Assembly (NCBI GenBank): GCA_001778235.1
Contig: MFGJ01000008.1
Span: forward strand, 129,148 to 193,147
Direction of reading: 5' to 3'
DNA: 64,000 nucleotides
Source of the DNA: Candidatus Falkowbacteria bacterium RIFOXYC2_FULL_36_12
GTDB taxonomy: Bacteria > Patescibacteriota > Patescibacteriia > UBA11705
The first letter of the stretch is position 1. Each line of letters starts with the position of its first letter. Positions 9,187 to 56,853 of the stretch are shown piece after piece. The position numbers and the translations under genes are program-made. Under the pieces are notes generated by a model. It was not told the DNA's origin and ran no database searches. It saw only the letters and a list, made by a program, of their open reading frames with translations.

Positions 9187-10077
9187 CTACCTCAAATTAA
9201 CTTGCTCCCACCCACTATCCTTTTTTTCATACAACCGAATATAACTATCTGTCTTCTTTGTCCTCATACTCTGACGCAATAGCATCTGGGCTTGGTATAA
9301 TTCAGGGAAAACTTCTTCCTTGATTTCTAGTCGCAGGAAAAGAGCAAAGCTCTGTCCGACACTAAAATGAGTCTTTTCCACAAAAATATCTCTTGTCATA
9401 TCAAACATTTCTCTAGTTAATTCATCCATTTCTAGTCTTTCAGAAAATCCATCAAAGAACCCCACAATCAGTTGCTGAGCACGCTCTGCCAAATCAGGTT
9501 GAACCATAGTAATACTATTTACCATTGCCACGACCTTACGTTTTCCATCACTCGATTCAAATGTGATCTGCCTACGCAGTGTGCCATCATCATTCAGTAA
9601 ATGAGGATAAATATGCCGACTCAAATAATTATTTCTAGCCTCCAGAGCTTTTATCACTGCATCATTGAGTTCAAACACAATCGCGATAATTTCATCTTGA
9701 GCTTCTTGTTGCGCTTTAACCTTAGCCACCAATTCAGCCTGTCTTATTCGGAGCTCCTGTAGTCTTTCTTCTTCTTGCCGAATCTTATTTCTAGCCTCAT
9801 CTCGCTCCTTGGTTAATTCTTTGTTTAAATCAGCAAATCTCTTAAAAATATCAGCAATTCTCTTTGATTTCGATTTGAGTTTCTTTGAACCCTTTTTACG
9901 ATCTTCCAATCTTTGTTCCATTTCTCCCAAAACATCAACCGTATCCAAAGATGTGCTTACGAATTCACGAAACTTTTTAACCCAAGATTTTCTAACTTCC
10001 TCTTCCTTTTTACGCAACTTTTTCAAATTTTGTTCAACAACAGCAATCGCTTTCTTTACTTGCTTCAATGCTTCCAT
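9187..10077 (-). CDS. hypothetical coiled-coil protein (297 aa from the ATG at 10077)
   Basis: N-terminal K/E/R-rich heptad region and a C-terminal globular part. AGGAGG lies 6 nt upstream of the ATG at 10077. The upstream 26 codons of the track ORF are likely 5'UTR. Confidence 0.55.
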   Translation of the reverse strand: MEALKQVKKAIAVVEQNLKKLRKKEEEVRKSWVKKFREFVSTSLDTVDVLGEMEQRLEDRKKGSKKLKSKSKRIADIFKRFADLNKELTKERDEARNKIRQEEERLQELRIRQAELVAKVKAQQEAQDEIIAIVFELNDAVIKALEARNNYLSRHIYPHLLNDDGTLRRQITFESSDGKRKVVAMVNSITMVQPDLAERAQQLIVGFFDGFSERLEMDELTREMFDMTRDIFVEKTHFSVGQSFALFLRLEIKEEVFPELYQAQMLLRQSMRTKKTDSYIRLYEKKDSGWEQVNLR

Positions 10078-10117
10078 TTCCTTCCTCCTGTCTCCTTGGC
10101 AAAGAACATAACAAACA

Positions 10118-10157
10118 ACTTTAACATAATAACAAAAAAATGTCAATTTTGACATTT
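10118..10157 (-). promoter_or_regulatory. Promoter (minus-strand TTGACA-17-TAAAGT) overlapping the perfect palindrome AAATGTCAA-TT-TTGACATTT
   Basis: Palindrome at 10138..10157. The -35 is rc of 10141..10146, the -10 is rc of 10118..10123, about 35 nt upstream of the 10077 start. Confidence 0.4.
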
Positions 10158-10161
10158 AAGA

Positions 10162-10455
10162 TTATTTCTTTTTTATTAACCGACATTTCTTAAGCCCATA
10201 ACCACACATAACACGAGTAATTTTTATATCATATGCATTCCCAGCAATTATCCTTTTAGAATGATCACCATTTACATGCATTACCTCACCGCATTGAAAC
10301 GAAATTTCAGTAACATCACACTCATCTAGATATCTAACAAAATTCACTACATCAATAATCTGTATGGTATTATAATCATCACTACAAGAAAGAACATAAT
10401 TAAAAACCAATACATCTAACAATTCAAAGAAACTTACCACTATCCCCCTAAACAT
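10162..10455 (-). CDS. hypothetical protein (97 aa from the ATG at 10455)
   Basis: GGGAGG sits 5 nt upstream of the ATG at 10455. The longer track ORF has no SD. Confidence 0.4.
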   Translation of the reverse strand: MFRGIVVSFFELLDVLVFNYVLSCSDDYNTIQIIDVVNFVRYLDECDVTEISFQCGEVMHVNGDHSKRIIAGNAYDIKITRVMCGYGLKKCRLIKKK

Positions 10456-10529
10456 CTTTGCCTCCCTTCGCCTCCTTGACTGAATAACCTTAAATTTAAC
10501 ACTACAATCAGAACTTGTCAATACAATCC

Positions 10530-11261
10530 TTATACAATCTGTTTCCAACTATAAATCTCTTTTTCTACCAAATAATTCAGCCAATCTTTCATAAAAACAA
10601 CAATTTTGTTGAGTAAATCTTGCTTTATTACCAATTTTGGAAAAACTTTTTGATCATTAATAAAAATCAATCTCAAAAATTTAATAACATTTTCATCAAT
10701 TTTTAACTTTTCACAGTTACATTTTGAACATATCATAGAATTATCATGCCAAGAAAAATAAGCTTTTTCACCTACTTTATTATTGCACTTTACACAACTG
10801 TACAACTCTGGACTATATCCTAATAATTTCATAAGCTGGCAAGCAAAATAAATAACAATTATTTTTTTACTATTTTTATCGCTTGTTTTTTCAAGCCTTC
10901 GAATAGTATCAATTACCAATTGCCACTCCAATAAATTTTTATCCTCCAATTCTAGAGACTTTTCCAACAATTCAAATATAATATTTATATAAATAAAATC
11001 TTGCTCTAAATTTAAATCAAACTTTTCAATCAATCTTGCAGATGCCAATTTATCAAAACTATTTTTTGATCGAGCAATCATTAAATCAACCAATCCATAA
11101 CTGCTCAAATGTCCCATCAATTTACTCTTTATTTTTTTCGACCCAATTGCTACCGCCTGAATTTTACCAAAATTTTCAGTATAAAAAGAAAAAAGACTGT
11201 CATTTTCCCTCCAGTCTTTTCTATTTAAAACAAATCCAATTGTCTTATAAGTTTTATCCAT
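10530..11261 (-). CDS. recO: DNA repair protein RecO
   Basis: N-terminal OB-fold region and a C-terminal CxxC...CxxC zinc motif (CVKC...CSKC). The track start is TTG; the ATG is at 11261. Confidence 0.75.
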   Translation of the reverse strand: MDKTYKTIGFVLNRKDWRENDSLFSFYTENFGKIQAVAIGSKKIKSKLMGHLSSYGLVDLMIARSKNSFDKLASARLIEKFDLNLEQDFIYINIIFELLEKSLELEDKNLLEWQLVIDTIRRLEKTSDKNSKKIIVIYFACQLMKLLGYSPELYSCVKCNNKVGEKAYFSWHDNSMICSKCNCEKLKIDENVIKFLRLIFINDQKVFPKLVIKQDLLNKIVVFMKDWLNYLVEKEIYSWKQIV

Positions 11262-11276
11262 ATCAATAATCAAACA

Positions 11277-11669
11277 TCAAAGTCTTTCAAAATAACTTTG
11301 TAATATTGCTGCTGCCGCAATATCATCATCACCAACCTTTTTATATCCTTTAAATTCTTTCTTCATGCTTTCAGCATATTTTGTTGACATTCTTTCATCT
11401 TCCAAATGGACTAACTTTCCAAACTGTTTAATCCAATTTAAAAACTCCTCAAAATTTTTATGTAAATTTTCTTCTCCAGCCAGCGTTTTTGGTTGCCCGA
11501 TTATTAATTCGTCAATTTTTTCATCATCTATCAATTTCTGGATACTTTTAGCCAATTCACTTAAATTTTTATAAGATAAAATCAATATCGGACTGGAAAT
11601 TTTCATTTCACTTGTACCCAGAGCAAACCCAATTTTCGATTGACCCCAATCAATACCAAGATAATTCAT
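11277..11669 (-). CDS. ruvX: Holliday-junction resolvase-like nuclease RuvX/YqgF
   Basis: MNYLGIDWGQSKIGFALG N-terminus typical of YqgF. Confidence 0.85.
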   Translation of the reverse strand: MNYLGIDWGQSKIGFALGTSEMKISSPILILSYKNLSELAKSIQKLIDDEKIDELIIGQPKTLAGEENLHKNFEEFLNWIKQFGKLVHLEDERMSTKYAESMKKEFKGYKKVGDDDIAAAAILQSYFERL

Positions 11670-11670
11670 A

Positions 11671-12441
11671 TCATTTCCCTGTTAAAACTTCGCATCCAGT
11701 TTTTGTTATCGCGAAAGTATGCTCAAAATGAGCAGAATATTTTCTATCTTTTGTCGCCACAGTCCAGTGATCTTCCATAGTTTCTATTTCATAATCTCCA
11801 GAGGTAACCATTGGCTCACAAGCCAAAACCATCCCTTCTCTTAAAACAAAATCATAGGTTGGGATGACATAATTCGGCAATTGCGGTTCCTCATGTACTG
11901 CATGACCTACACCATGACCAACTAAATCTCTAACTAAACCATAACCTTGTCCTTCAACATATTTTTGCACCTTTCCAGCCACTTTTGACCATTTTTCCCC
12001 TGCTCTCAAATTATCCTTATATATATCCAAAGCCTGCCTTGTTACATCAACCAGTTTTTGCAATTCTGAACCTATCTTCCCCACTGGGACCGTTATTGCC
12101 ATGTCAGTATACAACCCATTTTCAGCCGGATAACGCATACCAACATCCAGACTTATAATATCACCTTCTTTCAAGATTCTATCCTTTCTTGGCACCCCAT
12201 GAACCACTTCAGCATTTATAGAAGTACAAACACTACCAGGATATGGTGGTTGACCATAATTTTTAAATGCCGGAATACCTCCAGCTTGCCTAATCAATTT
12301 TTCTCCCATTTGATCCAATTCAAAAGTCGATACTCCTGGTCGGACTATTTCTGCTACCTGCATCAATATTTTATTCAACATCTTTCCACCTTGTCGTATC
12401 AATGCAATTTCTTCTTTTGTCTTAATCTTTGCCATTATCAT
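11671..12441 (-). CDS. map: methionine aminopeptidase type I
   Basis: Pita-bread-fold motifs (DIISLDVG, VGHGVGHAVHE, EPM). Confidence 0.9.
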   Translation of the reverse strand: MIMAKIKTKEEIALIRQGGKMLNKILMQVAEIVRPGVSTFELDQMGEKLIRQAGGIPAFKNYGQPPYPGSVCTSINAEVVHGVPRKDRILKEGDIISLDVGMRYPAENGLYTDMAITVPVGKIGSELQKLVDVTRQALDIYKDNLRAGEKWSKVAGKVQKYVEGQGYGLVRDLVGHGVGHAVHEEPQLPNYVIPTYDFVLREGMVLACEPMVTSGDYEIETMEDHWTVATKDRKYSAHFEHTFAITKTGCEVLTGK

Positions 12442-44316: not shown

Positions 44317-46899
44317 ATGCAAGACAAAATAATCATCACTGGCGCCAAAGAGCACAATCTAAAAAATATAAACCTAGAAATCCCCAGAAATAAAATGATA
44401 GTTTTCACAGGTTTGTCTGGTTCTGGCAAATCCAGTCTAGCTTTTGATACTATTTTTGCCGAAGGCCAAAGACGCTATATTGAAAGTCTGTCAGCTTATG
44501 CTAGACAATTTCTTGGTGGACTGCAAAAACCCAATGTTGATGAAATTACCGGACTTTCACCCGCCATTTCCATTGACCAAAAAGCTCACAGCGCCAATCC
44601 CCGATCAACCGTTGCTACCATTACTGAAATTTATGACTATCTCCGAATTTTATTTGCCAAAATCGGTACACCCTATTGCCCAATTTGCCAAACAAAATTG
44701 GATAAAACCACTACTCAAGAAATGACCGAAACAATTTTAACGAAAATAACCAAATTTAAAAATAATCAAGACAATGAATTAAAAATTTTCGCTCCAATTG
44801 TTCGCGGACGCAAAGGAGAATATCATCAATTACTCTATGATATTTATAATTCTGGATTTCTCGAAGCCCGAATTGATAACAAAATCTACAAACTAAAAAA
44901 TCGCATTGATCTTTCCCGCTACCAAAAACACACCATTGAAATTGTTATTGATAAAGCCTGGGTTGATGAATTTTTACTTCAAGAATTCAAAAAAGGCACA
45001 GAGCAACGACTGGCTGAAGCCATAGAAAAAGCCGTTGATCTGTCCAATGGACTTTGCACTGTTATTTATCCTGATTTATCTGAAGAAACTTTTTCTACTG
45101 AATTTACTTGCCCCAAAGACGGTTATAGCTTTCCTGAAATCGAACCTCGTCTTTTTAGTTTCAACAGTCCCTATGGCTACTGTGAATTTTGCACTGGACT
45201 TGGAACTAAAGAATTGTTCAGTACTGAACCATGCCCTGTCTGTGAGGGCAAAAGATTAAACAACAATGCTCTTCATGTCAAAATTGACAATAAAAATATT
45301 TGGCAGATTACCAATCTATCAGTCAAAGATGCCAATCAATTTTTCAACCAACTAAAACAAAAACTAACCAACCAACAGAACGAAATTGCTGAATTAGTTA
45401 TCAATGAAATAAACAATCGCCTGCAATTTATGTTCGATGTTGGTCTACATTATTTAACTCTAAATAGAAAATCAGGTACTCTCTCCGGTGGCGAAGCCCA
45501 GAGAATTAGATTAGCATCACAAGTTGGACAACGATTAGTCGGAGCACTTTATGTTCTTGATGAACCAACAATTGGTCTGCATCAAAAAGACAACGAACAG
45601 CTAGTCAATACCCTGCGCAATCTTTGTGATATTGGCAATACTATTATTGTTGTTGAACATGATGAAGACACAATTCTTTCTAGTGATTGGGTGGTTGATA
45701 TTGGCCCTGGTGCTGGTAAACATGGCGGTGAAATAGTTTTTTCAGGACCTTTAGACAATTTATTGAATAGTAAAAAAATTCTTGAACAAGTATCCTTAAA
45801 CTGCCAGACTGCGGGTCAAGCAAAAAATTCTTTAACCGGTAAATATCTCCGATCTGAAGAAACCATTCCCACACCAAAACAATACCGAAAAGTCGACAAA
45901 AAAACTCCGACAATAAAAATTATCGGAGCATCACAGCACAATCTTAAAAACATTGATGTTGAAATTCCTCTACGCCGGCTTGTTTGTCTTACTGGTGTTT
46001 CTGGCTCTGGAAAATCAACACTAATGAATGATATTCTCTATCGCGCAGTTCAAAATAAATTATTTCGCACCAGAAAAAAAGTCGGCGAGCATAAATCAAT
46101 CAGCGGAACAGAAACTTTAGACAAAATAATTCGCATTGATCAAGGTCCGATTGGCCGTTCACCTCGTTCAAACCCAGCAACCTATACCTGTTCATGGACA
46201 TTTATTCGTGAATTATATTCAGCCACACCTGAAGCCAAAATCAGAGGCTACAAACCAGGTAGATTTAGTTTCAATCGTCCAGGTGGCCGTTGTGAAGCCT
46301 GTGAAGGTCGTGGTGTAAAAGAAATTGAAATGCATTTTCTACCTAGTGTAGAAGTTATTTGTGAAATTTGCCACGGCAAAAGATTTAACAAAGAAACCCT
46401 ACAAGTTCACTACAAAGGCAAGGATATTTCTGAAGTTTTAGACATGACAATTGAAGACGCTGAAATTTTTTTCCGCGATATCCCAATTATTTATTCAAAA
46501 TTAAAAATATTAAATGAAGTTGGCTTGGATTATTTAACACTTGGCCAATCAGCTAAAACTCTTTCCGGAGGAGAAGCTCAAAGAACAAAACTAAGCAAAG
46601 AACTTGCCCGAAAAAGTACAACCCAAACACTTTATCTCTTGGATGAACCAACAACTGGCCTGCATTATGCTGATGTAAAAAAACTACTTGAAGTACTTCA
46701 GAGACTGACCAGCCAAGGCAACACCGTCATGATTATCGAACACAATCTTGATGTTATTAAAAATGCTGACTGGGTAATTGATCTCGGACCAGGCGGAGGC
46801 GAAGAAGGCGGTCATCTTGTTGCCATGGGAACACCAGAAGACATCGCCAGAAAGTCAGCTAGTTTTACCGGAAAATATCTCAAACCATATCTAAAATAA
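44317..46899 (+). CDS. uvrA: excinuclease ABC subunit A (compact, 860 aa)
   Basis: Two ABC modules ([10 protein letters not shown] / [18 protein letters not shown] x2) and zinc-finger cysteines. Confidence 0.95.
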
Positions 46900-46905
46900 T
46901 CTTCC

Positions 46906-46955
46906 AAGCAGGTGGTATTTGAGAATATCACCTGCTTTAATTATACTTTTTTAAT
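46906..46955 (+). terminator. Terminator-like hairpin after uvrA (aagcaggtg...cacctgctt, 9 bp) followed by a T-rich tract
   Basis: The stem is perfect, the loop 14 nt, and the T-run is displaced by 9 nt. Confidence 0.4.
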
Positions 46956-46995
46956 GTAATTTTTCATCTTATTTCACCTAATTTTAGCCCAATCA

Positions 46996-47024
46996 TTGAC
47001 ATTTTTATCAAAATATGCTATAAT
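46996..47024 (+). promoter_or_regulatory. Consensus sigma70 promoter TTGACA-17-TATAAT driving the GC-rich ORF
   Basis: Exact hexamers at 46996..47001 and 47019..47024. GAGGAG SD 6 nt before the ATG at 47085. Confidence 0.55.
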
Positions 47025-47084
47025 TCATTGTTAGGCCTGTACCTTCAATGGTCCAATCTGGACCCGAAACGAGAGGAGACTCCC

Positions 47085-47780
47085 ATGGGAATCACCCTGC
47101 TCCAGCGCATCATCAACCCCAGAGCCAAGGGGACAGTGGATGATCCGGAAGAAATTTGGCCAGAGAAGTTCAACAACAACCCCAGAGCACTGATCGCCAT
47201 CTGGAACTTCATTCCGAAAGTCAACCATGACTGCCCGCTGTGGCAGGCGGTCATCGCCATCTTCAAGGAACTCGAAAAGTTCGACATTGAAGACAACTAC
47301 TGCCCCACCATCGAGGTCTACAACGGTCAGGACCAGAAACCCCAAGTCCTGATCATGGTGGACCGCCCTATCACCACCGGCTACATCGCCAAAACCCAGG
47401 TCTACGGTCCGGCGGATGAACTGATCGCGATCTACAACTCTCTCATCATCTTCACCATCGACATACACAGGAGTCGCTGCTGGCGTAGCCGGTCATGGAT
47501 CACTGCCTGGCTCTGCGCCCTCGGCTTCACAGAGGACGAGGCACACATGCTGGCTTCGGACAGAGATTTCCACCTGAACACCACCGCCTGCTACTTCCTC
47601 ACCCGCCTCGGCCTCCAACTCGGCCACGATGTCGAGGAATGCCTCGAACTTGCGAAGCAAATCAAACGCGAAGCCGATGTGGACGCGATCATCGAACTAC
47701 TGCTCGAAGACCGCTCACTCGGCCTCGACGACGCCGTCGCCCTGGCCTGTCCGATCCCCCGCCCGATCACCCACACCTGA
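47085..47780 (+). CDS. GC-rich hypothetical protein of evident foreign origin (231 aa)
   Basis: Strong G/C third-position bias in this frame only (atc acc ctg ctc cag cgc ...). The flanking DNA is AT-rich. No recognisable motif. Confidence 0.6.
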   Translation: MGITLLQRIINPRAKGTVDDPEEIWPEKFNNNPRALIAIWNFIPKVNHDCPLWQAVIAIFKELEKFDIEDNYCPTIEVYNGQDQKPQVLIMVDRPITTGYIAKTQVYGPADELIAIYNSLIIFTIDIHRSRCWRSRSWITAWLCALGFTEDEAHMLASDRDFHLNTTACYFLTRLGLQLGHDVEECLELAKQIKREADVDAIIELLLEDRSLGLDDAVALACPIPRPITHT

Positions 47781-47931
47781 AATCCACCAACAACAAGTAA
47801 ACAACAACAACAAACCGACTCATAAAAGTGAGCGGTTTTCAGTTTAAATTTTATTCAGTTATAATATAATTATCAATTAAATTTTATCCTTATGCTAAAA
47901 ATTGACTGGACAAATAAAAATTTATTCAACA

Positions 47932-48330
47932 CCACAAACACGATAAGCCTCGGGGCTTGTCTGCCGTAATCTTGATGAAGGCAGGTCTGGGGGGATTCTT
48001 AACATCAAAAAGCACGCCATAGACTTGATCAAGGGTACCACGCAGAGCGTAATCAATCACTTAATCTCAAAAAAACTTGCTTTAACAAAACTTATCACCT
48101 ACTTTATATATTAAATTCCACAAACACGGCAAGCATCGGGTCTTGCCTGCCGTAATCTTGATGAAGGCAGGTCTGGGTGAACAAGCGCGTCATCAAAACC
48201 ACGAACTTGATCAAAACAATTCGCATTTGTTCACCCAGTGGTTTTTGCATACTTTTTGCCATCAAAAAGTATGACGCGAAGCGTAATCAATCACTTATTC
48301 TCAAAATAACTTACTTTAGCAAAACAACAA
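47932..48330 (+). repeat. Two tandem copies (about 186-nt period) of a structured element with conserved 5' and 3' modules and a variable middle
   Basis: Copies start at 47932 and 48118 (ccacaaacacg...). Both carry ctgccgtaatcttgatgaaggcaggtctggg and gcgtaatcaatcactta-tctcaaaa-aactt-cttta-caaaac. Confidence 0.6.
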
Positions 48331-48465
48331 CTTACATTTAGATTACACTAGTGATCACTACATTCATTTGTTTCGCCTTTAAACCTATATATCAGCTGTC
48401 GCTGTTGGTTTATGTTTAAAACAAAAAAATCTTCACTTAGTTTAGCAAAGATAAATTAGTTTTGA

Positions 48466-48672
48466 TTATTCACCATTCTGCTTCGGAGCACGCCGATTGC
48501 AGGGCATCAGACGACGAGTCAAATTACTCGGCCTCTCACACTGATTTCTGAATGTCAAATCAGGGTTAAAATTTCTTGGTGTTCCATCATTCTGATCCAA
48601 AATCCTCTTATGTTCCTGAAAAACTTCATCCGAATTGAAGGTCGTAGGAAAAGGATTGAACAAGTTCGGCAT
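48466..48672 (-). CDS. possible small protein (68 aa)
   Basis: ATG at 48672 preceded by GGAGGG at 5 nt. Intermediate GC. No homology recognised. Confidence 0.25.
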   Translation of the reverse strand: MPNLFNPFPTTFNSDEVFQEHKRILDQNDGTPRNFNPDLTFRNQCERPSNLTRRLMPCNRRAPKQNGE

Positions 48673-48705
48673 GATTTCCCTCCGTCTGGGTTGGTCTCGA
48701 ACAAC

Positions 48706-48734
48706 TTGACAATAACAAGATTATATCATATTAA
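48706..48734 (+). promoter_or_regulatory. Promoter TTGACA-17-TATTAA placed 7 nt before the uvrC ATG (leaderless-type arrangement)
   Basis: -35 at 48706..48711, -10 at 48729..48734, ATG at 48742. Confidence 0.4.
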
Positions 48735-48741
48735 TCATACT

Positions 48742-49998
48742 ATGTCAACAGTAAACTCAAAAATAAAACAATTACTGAAAAAACTCCCTTCTACACCCGG
48801 AATATACTTTTTTTATAATAGCCAAAAACAAATAATCTATATTGGCAAAGCCACCAACCTTCATACTCGAGTAAAAAGCTATTTTCAAGCTAAAAAAACT
48901 GATCGTCCAATTGAAACCATGATTTCTAAAATTAATAATATAAAATTCCTCCAAACCGACTCTGTGCTTGAAGCAATTATATTAGAAGCCCAACAGATAA
49001 AAAAACTGCAACCGATTTATAATGTCTTAGGCAAAGACAATAAAAGCTGGATCTATATTGTAATCACCAATCACCAATATCCACGAGTTGAAACAATCAG
49101 AGAACATGAGCTAAATCAATTATCTGAAATAACCAAGAAAAAAGTCTACAACAAAATCTTTGGTCCATTTCCAAATTTACGAACAAAAGACACCATAAGA
49201 ATTCTGCAAAAACTTTTCTCTATTTCCTTTTGTCATCCTGATCAGAAAAAAGCCTGTTTTTATCGTCAACTAAATCAATGCTTGGGAGTTTGCACCAATG
49301 AAATTTCCGACAAGGACTATAAAAGTAAAGTTATTAATCCTTTAATTCAATTTTTATCTGGAAAAAAATCTTCAGTCATTCAAAAATTGAAAAAACAAAT
49401 GTTTCAAACTTCAAAAGCTGAAAATTTCGAAGAAGCTGGTCGAATACGCAACCAAATCAATAACTTAAAACATATCCAGGATGTGACGCTAATAGATGAA
49501 AAATTTTTCCAATCATATCGTGCAGACTCCAATCAACATTTATTTAAAATTGAAGGTTATGATATTTCCAATCTAGGATCAACTGGAAAAGTTGGCAGTC
49601 TTGTTGTCTTCGATCAATCAGGTCCGATCAAATCTGAATATAAAAAATTCAAAATCAAAACTGTCAGCGGTCAAAGCGATGTTGATTGTCTAGCTGAAAT
49701 ATTTGAACGCCGATTAAAACATCAAAATTGGACTTTGCCAGATTATTTTTTGGTTGATGGTGGCAAACCACAATTAAACAAAATTAAAAAAATCCTTATT
49801 TCTAAGAACATTGATATTCCTATTATTGGAATTGCCAAGGGTCAAGAACGAAAAAAAAATGAATTCCATCTCACCACTAGAAATCAATCCATTCTCGATT
49901 TCATAAAGCAAAACAGCAAACTTTTGATCCAAGTCAGAGATGAAGCCCACAGATTTGCTATCAGCTACCAACGCAAATTAAGAAAAATAAAGAAATAA
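48742..49998 (+). CDS. uvrC: excinuclease ABC subunit C (short form; GIY-YIG and RNaseH-like endonuclease domains)
   Basis: GIYFFYNSQKQIIYIGKATNLHTRVKSYF GIY-YIG motif. The ATG at 48742 is preferred over the upstream track start. Confidence 0.8.
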   Translation: MSTVNSKIKQLLKKLPSTPGIYFFYNSQKQIIYIGKATNLHTRVKSYFQAKKTDRPIETMISKINNIKFLQTDSVLEAIILEAQQIKKLQPIYNVLGKDNKSWIYIVITNHQYPRVETIREHELNQLSEITKKKVYNKIFGPFPNLRTKDTIRILQKLFSISFCHPDQKKACFYRQLNQCLGVCTNEISDKDYKSKVINPLIQFLSGKKSSVIQKLKKQMFQTSKAENFEEAGRIRNQINNLKHIQDVTLIDEKFFQSYRADSNQHLFKIEGYDISNLGSTGKVGSLVVFDQSGPIKSEYKKFKIKTVSGQSDVDCLAEIFERRLKHQNWTLPDYFLVDGGKPQLNKIKKILISKNIDIPIIGIAKGQERKKNEFHLTTRNQSILDFIKQNSKLLIQVRDEAHRFAISYQRKLRKIKK

Positions 49999-50012
49999 CC
50001 ACATATGGTTAT
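49995..50012. terminator. Bidirectional hairpin (ataacca-cata-tggttat) between convergent uvrC and the transposase gene
   Basis: 7-bp stem overlapping both stop codons, followed by ttcttttg. Confidence 0.4.
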
Positions 50013-50572
50013 TTCTTTTGATTTATTGGATTATGTTTTATATAAATTCTAATTTGGTCTAATGATTCATCGTTGCGAATTATGTGATCATAATATTGTT
50101 TCTGCCAAAATTGGACACCAATGGAATTATTCAATTTATTAATTTTTCGTGCGGAAAATGTTTTGAACCCGCGGATTATCTCACACAATTTGTATTTTTT
50201 ATCATAAACATTATTTGTAGGTGACGGTTTGAAACCGTCACCTACCGTTTCATCATCAATTAATTGCGGGTTCAAACCGTCACCTATCGATTCATCATCA
50301 ATCAATTGAATAATGCCATGCACATGGTCGGGCATAATAATAAATTCGTCCAAAACACAATTTTTATAATGATTTGGTAGATCATACCAACAATCTCTAA
50401 CAATTTTTCCTAATTCATTTAATAACATTTCATTATTTTCCACCGTACCTAGACAACAAAACCTGTTCTTTACACAAATTGTTATAAAATAAAAACCAGG
50501 ACTCGAATAATCCCAATTTTTTAATCTAAAAATCCCCTTATATTTCCCCCTATATAATTCCTTCTCATTCAT
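50009..50572 (-). CDS. IS200/IS605-family Y1 HUH transposase homologue (RAYT-like)
   Basis: HUH motif HVHGII and catalytic Tyr region QKQYYDHIIRN. Size and layout match TnpA(IS200)/RAYT. Confidence 0.7.
   Translation of the reverse strand: MNEKELYRGKYKGIFRLKNWDYSSPGFYFITICVKNRFCCLGTVENNEMLLNELGKIVRDCWYDLPNHYKNCVLDEFIIMPDHVHGIIQLIDDESIGDGLNPQLIDDETVGDGFKPSPTNNVYDKKYKLCEIIRGFKTFSARKINKLNNSIGVQFWQKQYYDHIIRNDESLDQIRIYIKHNPINQKK
50217..50245. repeat. REP-like palindrome GTAGGTGACGG-TTTGAAA-CCGTCACCTAC inside the transposase ORF, plus a 42-nt tandem duplication (50228..50311)
   Basis: 11-bp perfect stem starting with GTAG. The adjacent 42-nt units encode IDDESIGDGLNPQL / IDDETVGDGFKPSP in frame. 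Confidence 0.6.
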
Positions 50573-51366
50573 TATCCTGAAATAAATTTCATTACTTTGC
50601 CCAAATACTGCTTCACATCACTCGGTGCTTCAAAATCATGATCAGCTTTTCTCAAAATTATTTGTTTAATTTCTTTTGGGACTTTATTATTACTTACGAT
50701 TGGCACTTTGCTGTCAACCAAACTCTGAACTACCAAAATATGATTAAGCGGGATTGTTACAGTTGACAACAAATCCTGATAATCCATTTCAATATTTTCA
50801 ATAAAATAATCATTTTTTAACCAATGAGCCTTGCGCTCATATTTTTTTTGTTTAATGAAAAGTTTATATTTTAATGGACTGAAAAACCTTTTATAATTAT
50901 CCCAAGTGATTGTCTTTTTATCTTTATACATTCCTCGAACAAAATAATATTTCAAAATTTCTTCCTGATTCCAAGCAGGAGCAAACAAGACTACTTTTGA
51001 AATAAATTTATTTTTTTCCTGAAGGGAATTTACAACCATACAGCCAGCAATACTATGACCAACAACAACTATTTCTTTTAATTGCGGACAGACTCTTTTA
51101 AATGCTTCAAGAGCTGAATCAAATTCTAAAGTTGATTTTTCAACCGTAAAATCTTCAAATTTACCTTCAGACAAACCACAGCCAGAAAAATCAAACCTAA
51201 AAGTGGAATATTTATCTTTTATTCCCTGAAAAATATTTCGAAACTTGTATTCATAACAATTCCTCTCAAATCCATGAACGAAAATTATCCCTTTTGAGCC
51301 AGAGTGTTTAGTCACAACTCCTCGGAGTAAATCTCCACGAAAATTTTTGAACTCAATTATCTGCAT
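50572..51366 (-). CDS. alpha/beta-fold hydrolase
   Basis: GHSIAG nucleophile elbow (GxSxG) and HGF oxyanion region. Confidence 0.6.
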   Translation of the reverse strand: MQIIEFKNFRGDLLRGVVTKHSGSKGIIFVHGFERNCYEYKFRNIFQGIKDKYSTFRFDFSGCGLSEGKFEDFTVEKSTLEFDSALEAFKRVCPQLKEIVVVGHSIAGCMVVNSLQEKNKFISKVVLFAPAWNQEEILKYYFVRGMYKDKKTITWDNYKRFFSPLKYKLFIKQKKYERKAHWLKNDYFIENIEMDYQDLLSTVTIPLNHILVVQSLVDSKVPIVSNNKVPKEIKQIILRKADHDFEAPSDVKQYLGKVMKFISG

Positions 51367-51367
51367 A

Positions 51368-52018
51368 TTATAAATATTTAAGAATACTTTTCATATCTCT
51401 ACTGTTTATTATTACATCTGCCTCTTTTTCCAATTCTCCATTTTTTGGATTAAAAGCAATAAATAAGCCTGCAATCTCCCCCATTGGAATATCTGTGATA
51501 GAATCACCAACGACCACAACATCCTTACCTGACACCTTATATTTCTTCATATAATTTTTTAATACTTCTGGTTTAACATACCGATCAACTTTCCTTTTTA
51601 ATTTTCCTGTTGCAATATTATGCTTGTATTGCAAAATATTTCCTGCCACAAAATCCAAATTCAACTTCTTGGCTAAAACCTCTAAAATAAATTGCGGATT
51701 TGAACTTATTGCTCCAACAATAATTTTTCTTTGTTTTAGCTTTGATATTACTTGCTTCACATTCTTTGCCAACCGAACATCAATATAACCAGAAGCGATT
51801 TGTAAAAGATATGTCTTTTTATAATTTTTAAATAATTCAGCCAATTGTTCGAGCCCCCATGGCCCTTTATTTTTTCTTTTTTCATATTCTGCATGCAATT
51901 TCGCGACTTCCTTTTCTTTTCCCAAAAATTCAGCCACTTCTTTAAATCCACCTTTTTCAACCTCAAGTAAAACCCCATCAACATCAAAAACAACCATCTG
52001 TTTTGCTCTTTTAGTCAT
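51368..52018 (-). CDS. HAD-superfamily phosphatase (phosphoserine-phosphatase-like)
   Basis: DVDGVLL motif I and GDSITD motif IV. Confidence 0.65.
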   Translation of the reverse strand: MTKRAKQMVVFDVDGVLLEVEKGGFKEVAEFLGKEKEVAKLHAEYEKRKNKGPWGLEQLAELFKNYKKTYLLQIASGYIDVRLAKNVKQVISKLKQRKIIVGAISSNPQFILEVLAKKLNLDFVAGNILQYKHNIATGKLKRKVDRYVKPEVLKNYMKKYKVSGKDVVVVGDSITDIPMGEIAGLFIAFNPKNGELEKEADVIINSRDMKSILKYL

Positions 52019-52128
52019 AAATTGAATTTCGTGAATTAATAGCCATCTTATTATAAATTATACCTCATTTGAAAAAAATATACCTTTTTGATTACAAATT
52101 CAACAATTTTTATCCACATTTAATTAAT

Positions 52129-52176
52129 TTGACAATATTTTCATAGATGATATATTATTAGTAATGATTATCATTA
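52129..52176 (+). promoter_or_regulatory. Promoter TTGACA-16-TATATT followed by the Fur-box-like palindrome TAATGATTATCATTA abutting the start codon
   Basis: -35 at 52129..52134, -10 at 52151..52156. The 15-bp palindrome at 52162..52176 matches the Fur consensus core AATGATAATCATT at 12/13. Confidence 0.55.
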
Positions 52177-52182
52177 ATATTT

Positions 52183-52596
52183 ATGCTCAATTATACTGAT
52201 TTAAAAACTAATATCAATAAATCAGGACAAAGACTCACACCACAAAGATTAACCATCCTGAAATATTTGCAAAGTGTTACCTGTCATCCAACCGCTGAAA
52301 AAATTTATCATCATGTCCGTCAAACAATTCCAAATGTCAGTCTAGGTACAGTCTATCGCAATTTAAATTATTTAGCACAAAAAGGTTTAATCATCCAATT
52401 TCAAAAAGACGCTAACCTTACATGCTTTGATGGTAATCCTTCAGATCACCTGCATTTCATCTGCCAAAAATGCCACAAAGTTTATGACATTTTCGAAAAC
52501 TCACCAATTGATGAAAAAAAACTGAAACAAATTGGTCAGCCACAAAAAATTGAATGTAAAATTTATGGGACTTGTAACAAATGTTTAAATAAATAA
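52183..52596 (+). CDS. Fur-family transcriptional regulator (PerR/Fur-like)
   Basis: Winged-helix N-terminal domain and HxH...CxxC...CxxC metal sites (HLHFICQKCHKV...CNKC). Confidence 0.8.
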   Translation: MLNYTDLKTNINKSGQRLTPQRLTILKYLQSVTCHPTAEKIYHHVRQTIPNVSLGTVYRNLNYLAQKGLIIQFQKDANLTCFDGNPSDHLHFICQKCHKVYDIFENSPIDEKKLKQIGQPQKIECKIYGTCNKCLNK

Positions 52597-52658
52597 TTAA
52601 CAATTTGTAATACTATAATCTCTGTCCCTGCATTTCGTAAAAATAACCCACCCAAATT

Positions 52659-53237
52659 ATGGAAACACAAAATTATTCACTCATAAATCAACCACTTCCT
52701 GACTTTGAGGTTGATATCTACCACCAAGGAAAAGAAAAAAAAATCAAACTTTCAGATTACCGAGGTAAATGGTTGATTTTATTCTTCTACCCAGCAGACT
52801 TCACCTTTGTCTGCCCAACAGAATTAAGAGAACTTGCCCAAAATTATGAGGCAATTAAAAATGAAAATGCCGAAGTTATCAGCTTCAGTACTGACACCGT
52901 CTTTGTTCACAAAGCTTGGCATGACAATTCTGACGCTATTTCTGGAGTTCAATTTCCTATGGCCGCTGACCCAACCGGCAAAGTTTGCAAAGCCCTAGGA
53001 ACCTATATCCCGGACGAAGGACTCTCACTAAGAGCAACCTTTATTATTGATCCAGAGGGAATTATTAAAGCCATTGAGATTCAAGACAACAATATTGGTC
53101 GAAGTGCCTCTGAAATGCTTCGTAAAATCCAAGCAGCAAAATTCGTAGCTGAACACGGAGGAGAAGTTTGTCCTGCTAGCTGGAAACCAGGAGACAAAAC
53201 CTTAAAACCAGATCTTGATCTCGTCGGCAAAATCTAA
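52659..53237 (+). CDS. typical 2-Cys peroxiredoxin (AhpC/Prx1 type)
   Basis: Peroxidatic Cys in FTFVCPTEL and resolving Cys in EVCPASW. Confidence 0.85.
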   Translation: METQNYSLINQPLPDFEVDIYHQGKEKKIKLSDYRGKWLILFFYPADFTFVCPTELRELAQNYEAIKNENAEVISFSTDTVFVHKAWHDNSDAISGVQFPMAADPTGKVCKALGTYIPDEGLSLRATFIIDPEGIIKAIEIQDNNIGRSASEMLRKIQAAKFVAEHGGEVCPASWKPGDKTLKPDLDLVGKI

Positions 53238-53354
53238 CCTAACTAAACTAATTCAGCATTATCAAGAAATAAAGCAATCACCCCTATCACATCATTCACA
53301 CCAATAACAACTTTACTTGCTTTATTCTTATCTCGCTGACCTCGCTAAAAAAAT

Positions 53355-53933
53355 ATGTTTGAATTACCAAAATTGGATTATCCCTATGATGCGCTTGAGC
53401 CACACATTGACGCGCATACAATGGAAATTCATCACTTAAAACATCATCAAGGCTACACTGACAAATTCAACGCTGTACTAGAAAAATACCCCATAATTGG
53501 CTCAATGCCTCTGGAAAATATTTTCCAAAAATTAAATGACCTAGAAATAGCTGAACCAGACCGCCAAGCAATCCGCAACAATGGAGGCGGTTACATCAAT
53601 CACAAAATTTTCTGGCAATCAATGGCGCCCGAAAAACAAATTGATCATGAGCTTATCAAAGAAATTGAAACTTCTTTTGGTTCAGTCGAAAATTTCAAAC
53701 AACAATTTTCCGATATTGCCAAAAATCAATTCGGCAGTGGCTGGGCTTGGCTTGTCAGAGATCAAAATAATGCCTTAAAAATTTATTCCCTACTCAATCA
53801 AGATTCACCTTATACATTAGGACATACCCCTATTTTCAACCTGGATGTTTGGGAACATGCCTACTACCTTAAGTACCAAAACAAACGCCCAGACTATGTT
53901 GAAGCTTGGTGGAATGTATTGAAGTTTTTATAA
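53355..53933 (+). CDS. Fe/Mn superoxide dismutase
   Basis: LPxLxYxYDALEPHID, HHxKHH and DVWEHAYY metal-ligand motifs. Confidence 0.9.
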   Translation: MFELPKLDYPYDALEPHIDAHTMEIHHLKHHQGYTDKFNAVLEKYPIIGSMPLENIFQKLNDLEIAEPDRQAIRNNGGGYINHKIFWQSMAPEKQIDHELIKEIETSFGSVENFKQQFSDIAKNQFGSGWAWLVRDQNNALKIYSLLNQDSPYTLGHTPIFNLDVWEHAYYLKYQNKRPDYVEAWWNVLKFL

Positions 53934-54021
53934 ACAAACTTCATTTTAAAAGATCCTAAGAAATTTAATATAAAAATAACTTGCGTGATTGGCCTCATGC
54001 GAGTTATTTTTACCAGCTACT

Positions 54022-56853
54022 ATGCAAATAAACACAAAAATTAAAAAAAGAAATGGTAATATTGTCGAGTTTGATAATCAAAAAATAAAAACTGCCATCA
54101 GTAAAGCAGCTGAAGCATCAGGAGATAAAATTGAAAATGGATTATTACAAACAATCTCCCAGGAAGTAATCACTGACCTAGAACTTAAATTTTTCAACCA
54201 AGACATCATACCCAATGTCGAAGATGTCCAGAATTTTGTTGAAAAAAAATTAATGGAAAAAGGCTTTTTCCGAACAGCTAAACACTATATTATTTATCGC
54301 TATGAACATTTCAAGACACGAGAAGAACATAGACAACAAATCCAACAAAAATTAGACAACAATCAACTCTATGTCATCAAAAAAAATGGCAATAAACAAC
54401 TTTTTTCAATTGAGAAAATAAAAAAATTCATCTTAAACTTTACTCAAAACAATCAAAGCCAAATTGATATTGATTCTATCGCCAGACAAACACAAAAAGA
54501 AGTTTTTGAAGGCATCGACACCAAAAAAATCCAAGAAACCATCATTCTGGCAACCAGAGCTAAGATCGAACAAGAGCCGAGTTACTCCACTCTGGCAACA
54601 AAGATTCTCTCCGACTCTATCTACAAAGAAGTGATACAAATAAATCGTAAAACTGAAAACCTTGAACAAAAACATCAACAAGCTTTTATAAATTACATCA
54701 AGAAAGCCGTCAAACTAAAAATTCTTGATGTCAGAATGTTACTATTTGATTTAGAAAAACTTGCAAAAATCATTAATATTGAGAGAGATGAACTATTTGA
54801 ATACATGGGACTTCAAACTCTCTACGATCGATATCTGATTCGTAATCCCCAAAATAATATTCTACTAGAAACCCCACAATTTTTCTGGATGCGTGTAGCC
54901 ATGGGTTTAGCAATCGAAGAAAATAATCAAGATCAAAAAGCCGAAGAATTTTATAATATTATTTCTACTTTGCATTATGTCCCCTCAACACCAACACTCT
55001 TTCATGCTGGGACAATTCACCCACAATTGAGTTCCTGTTATCTCACAACTGTTGAAGATTCACTTGAACACATTTTCAAATCCATTGGTGACAATGCTCA
55101 ACTTTCAAAATGGTCAGGCGGAATAGGCAATGATTGGACCAACATTCGTGGTATGGGTGCTCTGATCAAAGGCACCCGGGTTGAAAGTCAAGGTGTAATT
55201 CCTTTTCTTAAAATCGCCAACGATACAACCGTAGCCATAAATCGCAGTGGTCGAAGACGCGGAGCCACTTGCGCTTACCTTGAAGCTTGGCATTATGATT
55301 TTGAAGACTTTTTGGAACTCCGTCGTAATACCGGTGATGAAAGAAGAAGAACTCATGATATGAATACAGCTGCTTGGATTCCAGACTTGTTTATGAAAAG
55401 AATTGCCGAAGACAAAGATTGGACTTTTTTTTCACCAGATGAGGTCCCAGACCTTCATCACATCTATGGCCAACAATTTGAACAACAATATGAGCACTAT
55501 GAAAAACTGGCTGAACAAGGAAAAATGAAATTATTTAAAAAAATAAAAGCCAAAGAACTCTGGAGAAAAATGCTCACCATGCTATTCGAAACCGGACATC
55601 CCTGGATCACTTTCAAAGATCCTTGCAACCTCCGTTCACCCCAAGATCATGTTGGAGTAATTCACAATTCTAATTTATGCACTGAAATAACTCTAAATAC
55701 TTCAGTTGAAGAAACAGCCGTTTGCAATCTTGGATCAATAAACCTCGCCAGACACATTTCAAATGGACAACTTGATAAAGAAAAACTCCAATCAACAATT
55801 GATACTGCCATCAGAATGCTCGACAATGTTATTGATATCAATTTCTATCCAACAAAAGAAGCAAAATTTGCCAATTTGAAACATCGCCCGATTGGACTCG
55901 GCATCATGGGTTATCAAGATGCTCTATATCAAATGAACATAAATTTTGATAGTGATAAAGCCATCGAATTTGCAGACCAATCAATGGAATTTATTTCATA
56001 TCACGCTATTTTAGGTTCATCAAAATTAGCAGAAGAAAAAGGAGCTTATAAAACATTCCCAAATTCCAAATGGGCCCGTGGTATCTTGCCCCATGACACA
56101 ATTACACTGCTTGAAAAAGAACGAGGCCAAGAAATCCCAATCAACAAATCTCAAACACTTAATTGGGAATATGTTCGACAAGAAATTATGGCAAAAGGCA
56201 TGAGAAATTCAAACTGCATGGCAATTGCCCCAACCGCCACCATTTCAAACATTGCCGGTTGCCTGCCAAGCATAGAACCAATCTATAAAAACATCTATGT
56301 CAAATCAAACATGAGTGGTGAATTTACTATTGTAAATCAATATCTTATAGAAGATTTGAAAAAAATAAATCTTTGGAACGAAGAAATGCTTAATCAAATC
56401 AAAAAAAATGATGGCGATATTAGTAATATTGAATTCATTCCAAAAGATCTAAGAACAAAATACAAAGAAACCTTTAGCATTGATGCGGAATGGCTGATTA
56501 AATCTGCTGCCCACAGAGGTAAATGGATCGACCAGAGCCAATCACTCAATATTTACCTAAAAACTACTTCTGGAAAAAGAATTTCTGAAGTCTACCAATA
56601 CGCCTGGAAGCTTGGACTGAAAACCACTTACTATTTACGCACATTAGCTGCTTCGGGCATAGAAAAAAGTACTTTAGAGATAAAACAACAAAACATTACT
56701 TCCAAAGATAATATTCAAGTCGCCAATGTCTCTGACAAAATAAAAGCACAGGCATCTTCTCAAGATACCTTAACCAAGCAACAACAATTTGCTGAATCCA
56801 GTTCAGTAAAATTATGCAAAATCAATGATCCAGAGTGTGAAGCTTGCCAATAA
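54022..56853 (+). CDS. nrdA: class Ia ribonucleoside-diphosphate reductase alpha subunit (with ATP-cone)
   Basis: N-terminal ATP-cone (KRNGNIVEFDNQKI), catalytic NLCTEI and C-terminal CxxC. The track start is TTG 53989; the ATG is at 54022. Confidence 0.9.
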   Translation: MQINTKIKKRNGNIVEFDNQKIKTAISKAAEASGDKIENGLLQTISQEVITDLELKFFNQDIIPNVEDVQNFVEKKLMEKGFFRTAKHYIIYRYEHFKTREEHRQQIQQKLDNNQLYVIKKNGNKQLFSIEKIKKFILNFTQNNQSQIDIDSIARQTQKEVFEGIDTKKIQETIILATRAKIEQEPSYSTLATKILSDSIYKEVIQINRKTENLEQKHQQAFINYIKKAVKLKILDVRMLLFDLEKLAKIINIERDELFEYMGLQTLYDRYLIRNPQNNILLETPQFFWMRVAMGLAIEENNQDQKAEEFYNIISTLHYVPSTPTLFHAGTIHPQLSSCYLTTVEDSLEHIFKSIGDNAQLSKWSGGIGNDWTNIRGMGALIKGTRVESQGVIPFLKIANDTTVAINRSGRRRGATCAYLEAWHYDFEDFLELRRNTGDERRRTHDMNTAAWIPDLFMKRIAEDKDWTFFSPDEVPDLHHIYGQQFEQQYEHYEKLAEQGKMKLFKKIKAKELWRKMLTMLFETGHPWITFKDPCNLRSPQDHVGVIHNSNLCTEITLNTSVEETAVCNLGSINLARHISNGQLDKEKLQSTIDTAIRMLDNVIDINFYPTKEAKFANLKHRPIGLGIMGYQDALYQMNINFDSDKAIEFADQSMEFISYHAILGSSKLAEEKGAYKTFPNSKWARGILPHDTITLLEKERGQEIPINKSQTLNWEYVRQEIMAKGMRNSNCMAIAPTATISNIAGCLPSIEPIYKNIYVKSNMSGEFTIVNQYLIEDLKKINLWNEEMLNQIKKNDGDISNIEFIPKDLRTKYKETFSIDAEWLIKSAAHRGKWIDQSQSLNIYLKTTSGKRISEVYQYAWKLGLKTTYYLRTLAASGIEKSTLEIKQQNITSKDNIQVANVSDKIKAQASSQDTLTKQQQFAESSSVKLCKINDPECEACQ

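Follow-up and report, generated by a model that had tools for sequence, protein, structure and literature searches.

A RAYT gene in a Candidatus Falkowbacteria genome carries a double-foot REP palindrome in its own reading frame

The gene of a REP-associated tyrosine transposase (RAYT; REP, repetitive extragenic palindrome) lies at positions 50009..50572, on the minus strand, of a 64-kb stretch of the genome of Candidatus Falkowbacteria bacterium RIFOXYC2_FULL_36_12. This whole stretch (contig MFGJ01000008.1, positions 129,148 to 193,147) is called the window in the following; its host belongs to the Patescibacteria (candidate phyla radiation, CPR) and has a genome with about 33% G+C. The open reading frame (ORF) begins with ATG, encodes 187 amino acids and contains, between the codons of the HUH motif and those of the catalytic tyrosine, a perfect palindrome with GTAG feet. 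With a probability of roughly 0.85, the ORF is a single-copy, host-embedded RAYT of subclass 2.4 that carries its own cognate-type double-foot GTAG REP in frame. Subclass 2.4 of TnpA_Y1 (Quentin, Siguier, Chandler, Fichant 2018, BMC Genomics 19:475, PMC6006769) is the same group as RAYT Group 4 of Bertels et al. (2017). The arrangement of a gene with its own REP was already published in 2018 as typical of this subclass, and the locus is a further example from the CPR.

The RAYT gene is tightly packed between host genes. The stop of an alpha/beta hydrolase gene (50572-51366, minus strand) shares 1 nt with the RAYT start (TAATG). Further upstream on this strand follows a HAD hydrolase gene (51368-52018, minus strand); both hydrolase genes were identified by their ORFs and by Pfam. 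Based on the sequence, these host genes (50572..52018) are probably co-transcribed with the RAYT gene, and a promoter-like site with 11/12 matches was detected ahead of the putative operon at 52217-52190 (minus strand) in a promoter and terminator scan. At the other end, the RAYT stop is only 10 nt away from the convergent gene uvrC, whose domains were identified, and both genes have a terminator-like hairpin in common (49989..50018, 13-bp stem, with a T-run on each strand). The initial annotation had described these neighbours and the bidirectional terminator, and had noticed no ends of an insertion sequence (IS), all of which agrees with our analysis: IS ends were not found at the locus, and there is no space for subterminal IS hairpins, with a host-gene stop running into the RAYT start and uvrC only 10 nt from the RAYT stop. 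Within the 64 kb, we found one RAYT copy and no tnpB. The protein is 100% identical to the hypothetical protein A2533_01100 of Candidatus Falkowbacteria bacterium RIFOXYD2_FULL_35_9, and at least 10 further contigs, which come from three metagenome-assembled genomes and several samples, agree exactly with the window in RAYT sequence and in gene order. The locus is present in the assemblies GCA_001778075.1, GCA_001778155.1 and GCA_001780315.1, and the longest contig with the gene measures about 423 kb. A search for repeat polymorphism in 10 contigs with the identical protein revealed none, with 100% identity over the gene and 1.4 kb upstream. The RAYT gene is fixed in the population.

The 187-aa ORF had been described as an HUH/Y1 protein, and this was confirmed by a Pfam Y1_Tnp match of 36 bits (cut-off 23) and by the alignment of its HVH motif with the E. 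coli enzyme. The top NCBIfam match was REP_Tyr_transpos (NF047646; 61.4 bits, E 8.6e-17), and the transpos_IS200 model (NF033573) gave 24.6 bits at a cut-off of 55. A comparison with a family model had been proposed as a check on the 14-aa duplication that is discussed below; the duplication falls within a loop insertion that splits the NF047646 match into two stretches. By both sequence and fold, the closest solved structure is E. coli TnpAREP bound to REP (4ER8). An AlphaFold model of the protein (mean predicted local distance difference test score, pLDDT, of 83.8) gave 4er8_A as the top Foldseek match (E 5.6e-7, TM 0.57/0.64, rmsd 2.6), and the TnpA proteins of IS608 and ISDra2 ranked closely behind.

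The three functional motifs could be placed by alignment with 4ER8. The HUH codons, H83-V84-H85 (50318..50326, minus strand, translated HVH), align with H59-M60-H61 and belong to the model's strand E83-90; in an alignment of 49 homologues, H83 never varies and H85 hardly ever. The catalytic tyrosine had been sought in the sequence YYDHIIRN, which was wrong. This sequence belongs to the W motif WQKQYYDHIIR (residues 156-166; 50075..50107, minus strand), the predicted GTAG-recognition region, which aligns with W94-Q95...E100-H101...R104 of 4ER8. These five E. coli residues are listed as GTAG-binding, and D replaces E at this position in some subclasses (Quentin et al., 2018). The corresponding residues W156, Q157, D162, H163 and R166 are predicted to bind GTAG in the window protein, which has D in place of the E. 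coli E. The catalytic Tyr177 is found together with Asn181 in the Y motif YIKHNP (residues 177-182; 50027..50044, minus strand), where they align with Y115, the catalytic tyrosine of 4ER8, and N119, a metal ligand. This Y motif has the form Y-x3-N-P, the class 2 signature, and not the Y-x3-Q of IS200.

A 29-nt 'double foot' REP palindrome, GTAGGTGACGGTTT-G-AAACCGTCACCTAC, occupies positions 50217..50245 on both strands, which corresponds to codons 110-119 between H85 and Y177. Its ends read GTAG...CTAC, its stem is GTAGGTGAC with the arm pattern GTAGGTGACGG-N7-CCGTCACCTAC, and it is translated as V110-GDGFKPSP-T119. A GTAG-initiated palindrome at this place in the coding sequence was already part of the initial annotation; the symmetry is in fact perfect over 14+1+14 nt. 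It is the sole palindrome of at least 14 bp in the 64 kb, the sole G+C-rich one and the sole one with GTAG...CTAC ends. The chance expectation for a 14-bp palindrome is about 5e-4 (approximately 1.3e5 centres x 4^-14), and shuffled sequence gave 0 matches to the pattern. In the protein model, the encoded decapeptide (residues 110-119) and the duplicated 14-mer are both contained in a loop of residues ~91-125, which lies between the HUH strand and helix 129-148, has a pLDDT of 45-65 and lacks secondary structure. An intrinsic terminator or attenuator in the RAYT gene was also considered, and was rejected because a T-run is absent after the palindrome on both strands; the scan yielded only the hairpin at 49989-50018 near the gene. 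A search of Rfam with positions 46800-50700 (E <= 0.1) gave no match; the hairpin belongs to no described RNA family.

Half of the palindrome is included in a 42-nt tandem duplication at 50225-50308, which was found by a repeat search and TRF (2.0 copies, 88% identity, no indels) and had been recognised before as an in-frame repeat. Its translation is QLIDDESIGDGLNP / QLIDDETVGDGFKP, followed by SPT. Unit 2, the 3' unit on the sense strand (50225..50266, minus strand), contains the left arm and the loop of the intact REP and encodes QLIDDETVGDGFKP. Unit 1, the 5' unit on the sense strand (50267..50308, minus strand), is a decayed REP consisting of the left arm only, with its foot changed from GTAG to ATAG, and encodes QLIDDESIGDGLNP; in a DNA fold, its left arm is able to pair with the single right arm to form an alternative hairpin. 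The repeat is a partial duplication of the REP left arm together with 21 nt upstream, and is now decaying. Left-arm-only duplicates were also observed in the homologues L083, L001, L004, P0005, P0013, P0015, P0019 and P0027 and, as in the window, always 5' (sense strand) of one intact palindrome, for example in L083 (9397-9440), where the encoded peptide is VGDGL-VGDGFKPSPT. This polarity suggests a directional process, which could be slippage at the hairpin or the work of the enzyme.

These features have been reported for subclass 2.4 as a whole, in which the HuH motif is NH[IFV]H, the W motif WQ and the Y motif YIxNNP, the median length is 194 aa, and a variable insertion with short repeats separates beta3 from alphaC (Quentin et al., 2018). 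The REPs of the subclass are of the 'double foot' type, 5' GT[AG]G ... C[TC]AC 3', begin with GTAGGGGC, GTAGGGAC or GTAGAGAC (Table S1) and are present within +/-1 kb of the great majority of its genes; an in-frame REP inside the gene, between HuH and Y, is given as unique to subclass 2.4 (Quentin et al., 2018). For comparison, we used a sample of 80 homologous loci from Chloroflexota, Cyanobacteria, Bacteroidota, Patescibacteria, Planctomycetota, Nitrospirota and other phyla. The modal motifs in 83 homologous genes are NH[VIF]H (70/83), WQ (74/83) and YIxNNP (36/83), and the REP feet found among the homologues are those of the subclass 2.4 REPs in Table S1. The window protein has DHVH, WQ and YIKHNP, and no tail domain.

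In 58 of the 83 homologous genes, the strongest hairpin of the whole ORF is located 20-180 nt past the HUH codons, and a clear palindrome is absent at that place in the remaining 25. Among the palindromes anchored by a GTAG foot, 44 have a length of 28 or 29 nt and one of 27 nt, and the double-foot GTAG...CTAC architecture occurs in at least 31 homologues. The outer stem is constant, GTAG(G/A)G(G/A)C, and the core is varied yet self-complementary (99% Watson-Crick), with the variants GGTTTSAAACC, GGCATGCC, GGTTCGCGAACC, ATTCATGAAT, GCATTGCAATGC and others. Loop length differs among the homologues, the offset from the HUH codons ranges from 33 to 165 nt, and two reading frames are used. Across the 44 palindromes, each of the stem positions 5-12 shows 98-100% Watson-Crick pairing with 2-4 pair types, compared to 30-42% when the partners are slid by 1-2 nt. 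Divergence of the palindrome core goes along with that of the protein (Mantel r 0.42, 0/2000 permutations). The nearest relatives with the same core class, P0006 and P0037, have GTAGGGGACGG...CCGTCCCCTAC, from which the window differs by a compensatory G:C to T:A change that affects two synonymous sites. In addition, eight gene pairs have identical palindromes at 46-65% identity of the core protein, with third codon positions near saturation; L010 was excluded from these pairs (codon mapping gave ~0.3 nucleotide identity at 0.5-0.6 protein identity). Judging from these sequences, the palindrome is retained by constraint on the DNA and not on the peptide.

A search of the genome for further REP copies had been proposed as a check, and for the window it was negative: in the 64 kb, a search with the palindrome and with its arms, in which up to 3 mismatches per 23 nt were allowed, and a general scan for GTAG-footed palindromes both gave the in-gene copy only. 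In metagenome contigs, the exact 23-nt core was detected in two unrelated contigs, L081 and L082; the source locus itself was not among the matches. Of 57 homologue loci, 26 contain further copies of their own palindrome, within 1 kb in 21 of these 26, and these nearby copies are mostly located 257-360 nt from the internal palindrome, just beyond the ORF ends. In the other 31 loci, the internal copy stands alone within the DNA analysed, as it does in the window.

The positions of the extra copies form a pattern in several loci. L001, L006, L012, L018, L029, L043 and others have one just 5' of the start and/or just 3' of the stop, which results in the layout REP / HUH half / REP / Tyr half / REP with a spacing of ~260-360 nt. 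Compared to the single copy of the window, a Deferrisomatales locus (L065, 9588-16406) is at the other extreme: 29 copies of its RAYT palindrome, with the core GGGGCGACGCATGCGTCGCCCC, are found in 20 kb, many of them ~68-110 nt apart and arranged in arrays on both sides of the gene. A Parcubacteria locus (L017) has two RAYT paralogues 1.2 kb apart (9907-10501 and 11145-11730) whose internal palindromes differ, one being a 37-nt palindrome with the core GGGAACGGTTTAAAACCGTTCCC and the other a perfect 44-nt palindrome, CCCGGACGGTAGAGACGCGGTTAACCGCGTCTCTACCGTCCGGG.

The conservation of the palindrome region could in principle reside in the protein or in the mRNA instead of the DNA. If VGDGFKPSPT were a conserved functional peptide, the palindrome would be a by-product of codon choice, and a decapeptide V-[GEV]-x-G-[FL]-K-P-x-[PST]-T is indeed present in 32 of the 49 aligned homologues. 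However, its residue pairs covary as base pairing dictates (G/P, E/S, V/T, T/V, A/A, D/S, N/F), other core classes yield VGARHAVPLQ, VETHCNASLQ and others, and the segment is disordered in the model. Read in the other frame, the same DNA gives the unrelated peptides RRGGSRTAPT and RRGTACRAPT; L023 and L030 read one 28-nt palindrome as VGARHAVPLQ, whereas in L043 the identical sequence encodes RRGTACRAPT. Because an identical palindrome is read in two frames, selection at the peptide level is excluded, and the functional-peptide reading, refuted on this ground, keeps next to no probability. The initial annotation had regarded an alignment of the region to conserved residues in homologues as evidence against itself; a conserved peptide is seen, but it derives from a conserved DNA palindrome, as the covariation and the two frames demonstrate, and the objection does not apply. 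An element acting in the mRNA, by translational pausing or attenuation, by stability or as a protein-bound site of autoregulation, is unlikely in our view. The 29-mer does form a strong hairpin in the sense RNA (z-score of -4.4 for a 136-nt region), and control by an mRNA hairpin is known for IS200 tnpA (mentioned in Di Nocera et al., 2013, PMC3733652). Against this, the symmetry extends to the very centre (loop of 0-1 nt), which an RNA hairpin can do without, whereas it is required of a palindrome or cruciform in DNA that reads alike from both strands. Moreover, identical elements occur beyond the ORF, both upstream and downstream, the cells at stem positions 5-12 include just one G-T and one C-T in 352, so that G-T pairs are nearly absent, and RAYTs are enzymes of single-stranded DNA. 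The locus might also be an active IS200/IS605 insertion sequence with overlooked ends, as the Pfam domain name 'Transposase IS200 like' and the close fold matches to the IS608 and ISDra2 TnpA proteins would have it. This is highly improbable in view of the Y-x3-N-P motif, the low transpos_IS200 score, the single copy in 64 kb without tnpB, and a locus that overlaps the stop of a host gene, leaves no space for subterminal hairpins before uvrC and recurs unchanged in at least 10 contigs of several samples. The absent ends, the operonic position, the Y motif and the fixed locus contradict an active element.

With the DNA as the level of conservation, the reason for the retention of the in-gene REP has to be inferred, and two accounts come into question. 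According to one, which is possible if somewhat doubtful, the REP is a neutral passenger: a mobile palindrome inserted by the RAYT near its own gene, tolerated in a permissive loop and without a role. This is essentially the published reading, in which in-gene REPs are peripheral-loop insertions with probably little impact on the protein (Quentin et al., 2018). It is favoured by the variable offset and the use of two frames, by the 25 homologues without a clear palindrome at the site, by degenerate partial copies, which speak for turnover, and by the 26 of 57 loci with the same palindrome just outside the ORF, which means that a local source pool of REPs exists. On the other hand, the internal palindrome is still perfect in 23 of the 31 loci without any other copy in the DNA analysed, compared to 20 of the 26 with external copies. 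A mere passenger is likewise disfavoured by palindromes that stay identical although protein identity has dropped to 46-65% and third codon positions are saturated, by a core that follows the protein tree and by the compensatory change on two synonymous sites. Such findings point either to constraint on the copy within the gene or to its continual replacement from distant copies; the data lean to constraint, with replacement from distant genomic copies as the alternative. The boldest reading, less likely than not, is that the intragenic REP might be an obligatory cis-element which selection maintains in RAYT genes of subclass 2.4, and the master copy of the enzyme's own substrate. If so, the enzyme's substrate could be inherited together with it, or the copy could give rise to new REPs or act as a site of self-recognition or autoregulation. 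Genomes that have undergone reduction, this Falkowbacteria genome among them, would then retain a minimal system made up of a RAYT and one REP, without dispersed REPs.

The identification of the ORF as a host-embedded subclass 2.4 RAYT does not depend on this choice. The initial annotation had proposed a host-integrated RAYT with its own target-type hairpin, which is supported by the 4ER8 match, the motifs, the operon and the identical locus in other contigs; the notion that this was peculiar to the gene did not stand, as the arrangement is found across the subclass. Several points nevertheless weigh against our reading. The REP_Tyr_transpos score of 61.4 is below the model cut-off of 80, and DHVH and YIKHNP are minority variants, each present in 3 of the 83 genes. 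The assignment to subclass 2.4 is based on motifs, taxonomy and the intragenic REP, and may be taken as a prediction from sequence features. The in-gene REP is the only one in 64 kb, and the REP-associated label is unproven for this genome because no second REP copy was found in the window. Finally, E. coli TnpAREP, from which binding and cleavage of REP are deduced, is only ~15% identical to the window protein.

By homology to E. coli TnpAREP, the window protein would bind and cleave REP, and a tentative mechanism can be outlined. The REP is carried in frame in the disordered loop from the HUH beta-strand to the next helix and is translated as VGDGFKPSPT without disturbing the fold. When the region becomes single-stranded, e.g. 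as lagging-strand template, the palindrome might extrude as a hairpin whose GTAG foot would be bound by the W-Q...D-H..R motif of the protein, by analogy with the E. coli enzyme. Nearby DNA might then be nicked by Tyr177 and the HUH-bound metal, as the same analogy suggests. The 42-nt repeat is a partial left-arm duplication of the REP region, of a kind that arises repeatedly in subclass 2.4, for which short repeats between HuH and Y have also been noted (Quentin et al., 2018).

Only one description of the in-gene REP in subclass 2.4 exists, which assigns it no function, and a search of the later literature found no functional study of it; the cellular role of RAYTs and REPs is itself unsettled. 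Comprising a 187-aa enzyme and one perfect 29-nt substrate-like hairpin in its own gene, in a small CPR genome, the locus could serve as a compact minimal system for the question whether such an enzyme binds or cuts the gene that encodes it. As this gene family shows, a DNA palindrome can dictate protein sequence: the recurrent peptides VGAGLKPAPT, RRGGSRTAPT, VGARHAVPLQ and VETHCNASLQ all arise by translation of a single palindrome family. Such palindrome-encoded peptides bear on annotation and on the reading of "conserved" motifs. A full-text literature search for the encoded peptides (GLKPAPT and others) retrieved no papers.

The wider surroundings of the RAYT operon contain genes of repair and oxidative stress (window 44317-56853), namely uvrA, uvrC, Fur, peroxiredoxin, Fe/Mn superoxide dismutase and ribonucleotide reductase, and uvrB is close by in the locus L085. 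Intragenic REPs are often found in repair genes (Di Nocera et al., 2013). Between uvrA and uvrC, at 47030-47790, lies an island with a G+C content of 0.51-0.59, compared to 0.28-0.42 elsewhere in the 64 kb. It is preceded by a perfect TTGACA-17-TATAAT (promoter-like site, ~46998-47026) and contains an ORF of ~231-250 aa with an AGGAG ribosome-binding site and an ATG at 47086. Searches of Pfam, PHROG and Rfam gave no match for this ORF, and gene calls over the island vary among otherwise identical contigs. It may be a horizontally acquired gene.

Among known systems, the window gene most fully resembles subclass 2.4 / Group 4, with which it shares a length of ~190 aa without a C-terminal tail, the motifs WQ, Y-I-x-x-N-P and N/D-H-[VIF]-H, the variable insertion between beta3 and alphaC with short repeats and a double-foot REP in frame between HuH and Y, as well as a low copy number and a scattered occurrence across phyla. 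It differs from typical members in having no flanking or nearby REP in 64 kb, in its CPR host with ~33% G+C, in the stem GTAGGTGAC instead of REPs such as GTAGGGGC or GTAGAGAC, and in the minority variants DHVH and YIKHNP. With E. coli TnpA_REP (RayT/YafM, with its REPtron; structure 4ER8; Messing et al. 2012, Ton-Hoang et al. 2012), it has in common the HUH/Y1 fold, the Y-x3-N-P tyrosine, the W-Q...(E/D)-H..R motif for GTAG binding, a GTAG-footed hairpin as substrate type and the state of a single-copy domesticated gene. In contrast, the E. coli enzyme belongs to subclass 2.2 and has a C-terminal inhibitory extension (E161), which is absent in the window protein. The REPs that accompany the E. 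coli enzyme are imperfect and bulged, have a single foot and are extragenic: they flank its gene as bacterial interspersed mosaic elements (BIMEs), and the gene itself contains none. IS200/IS605 TnpA proteins (IS608, ISDra2) share the HUH/Y1 fold and the recognition of hairpins in single-stranded DNA, but differ in having Y-x3-Q, imperfect subterminal hairpins at each IS end, multiple copies and often a tnpB partner, none of which the window locus shows. An in-frame palindrome with a tolerated peptide insert is also known from Rickettsia palindromic elements (RPE) and from intragenic GTAG/CGTC REPs (Di Nocera et al., 2013). Whereas those occur sporadically in unrelated genes, the palindrome of the window lies in the gene of the recognising enzyme, and does so subclass-wide.

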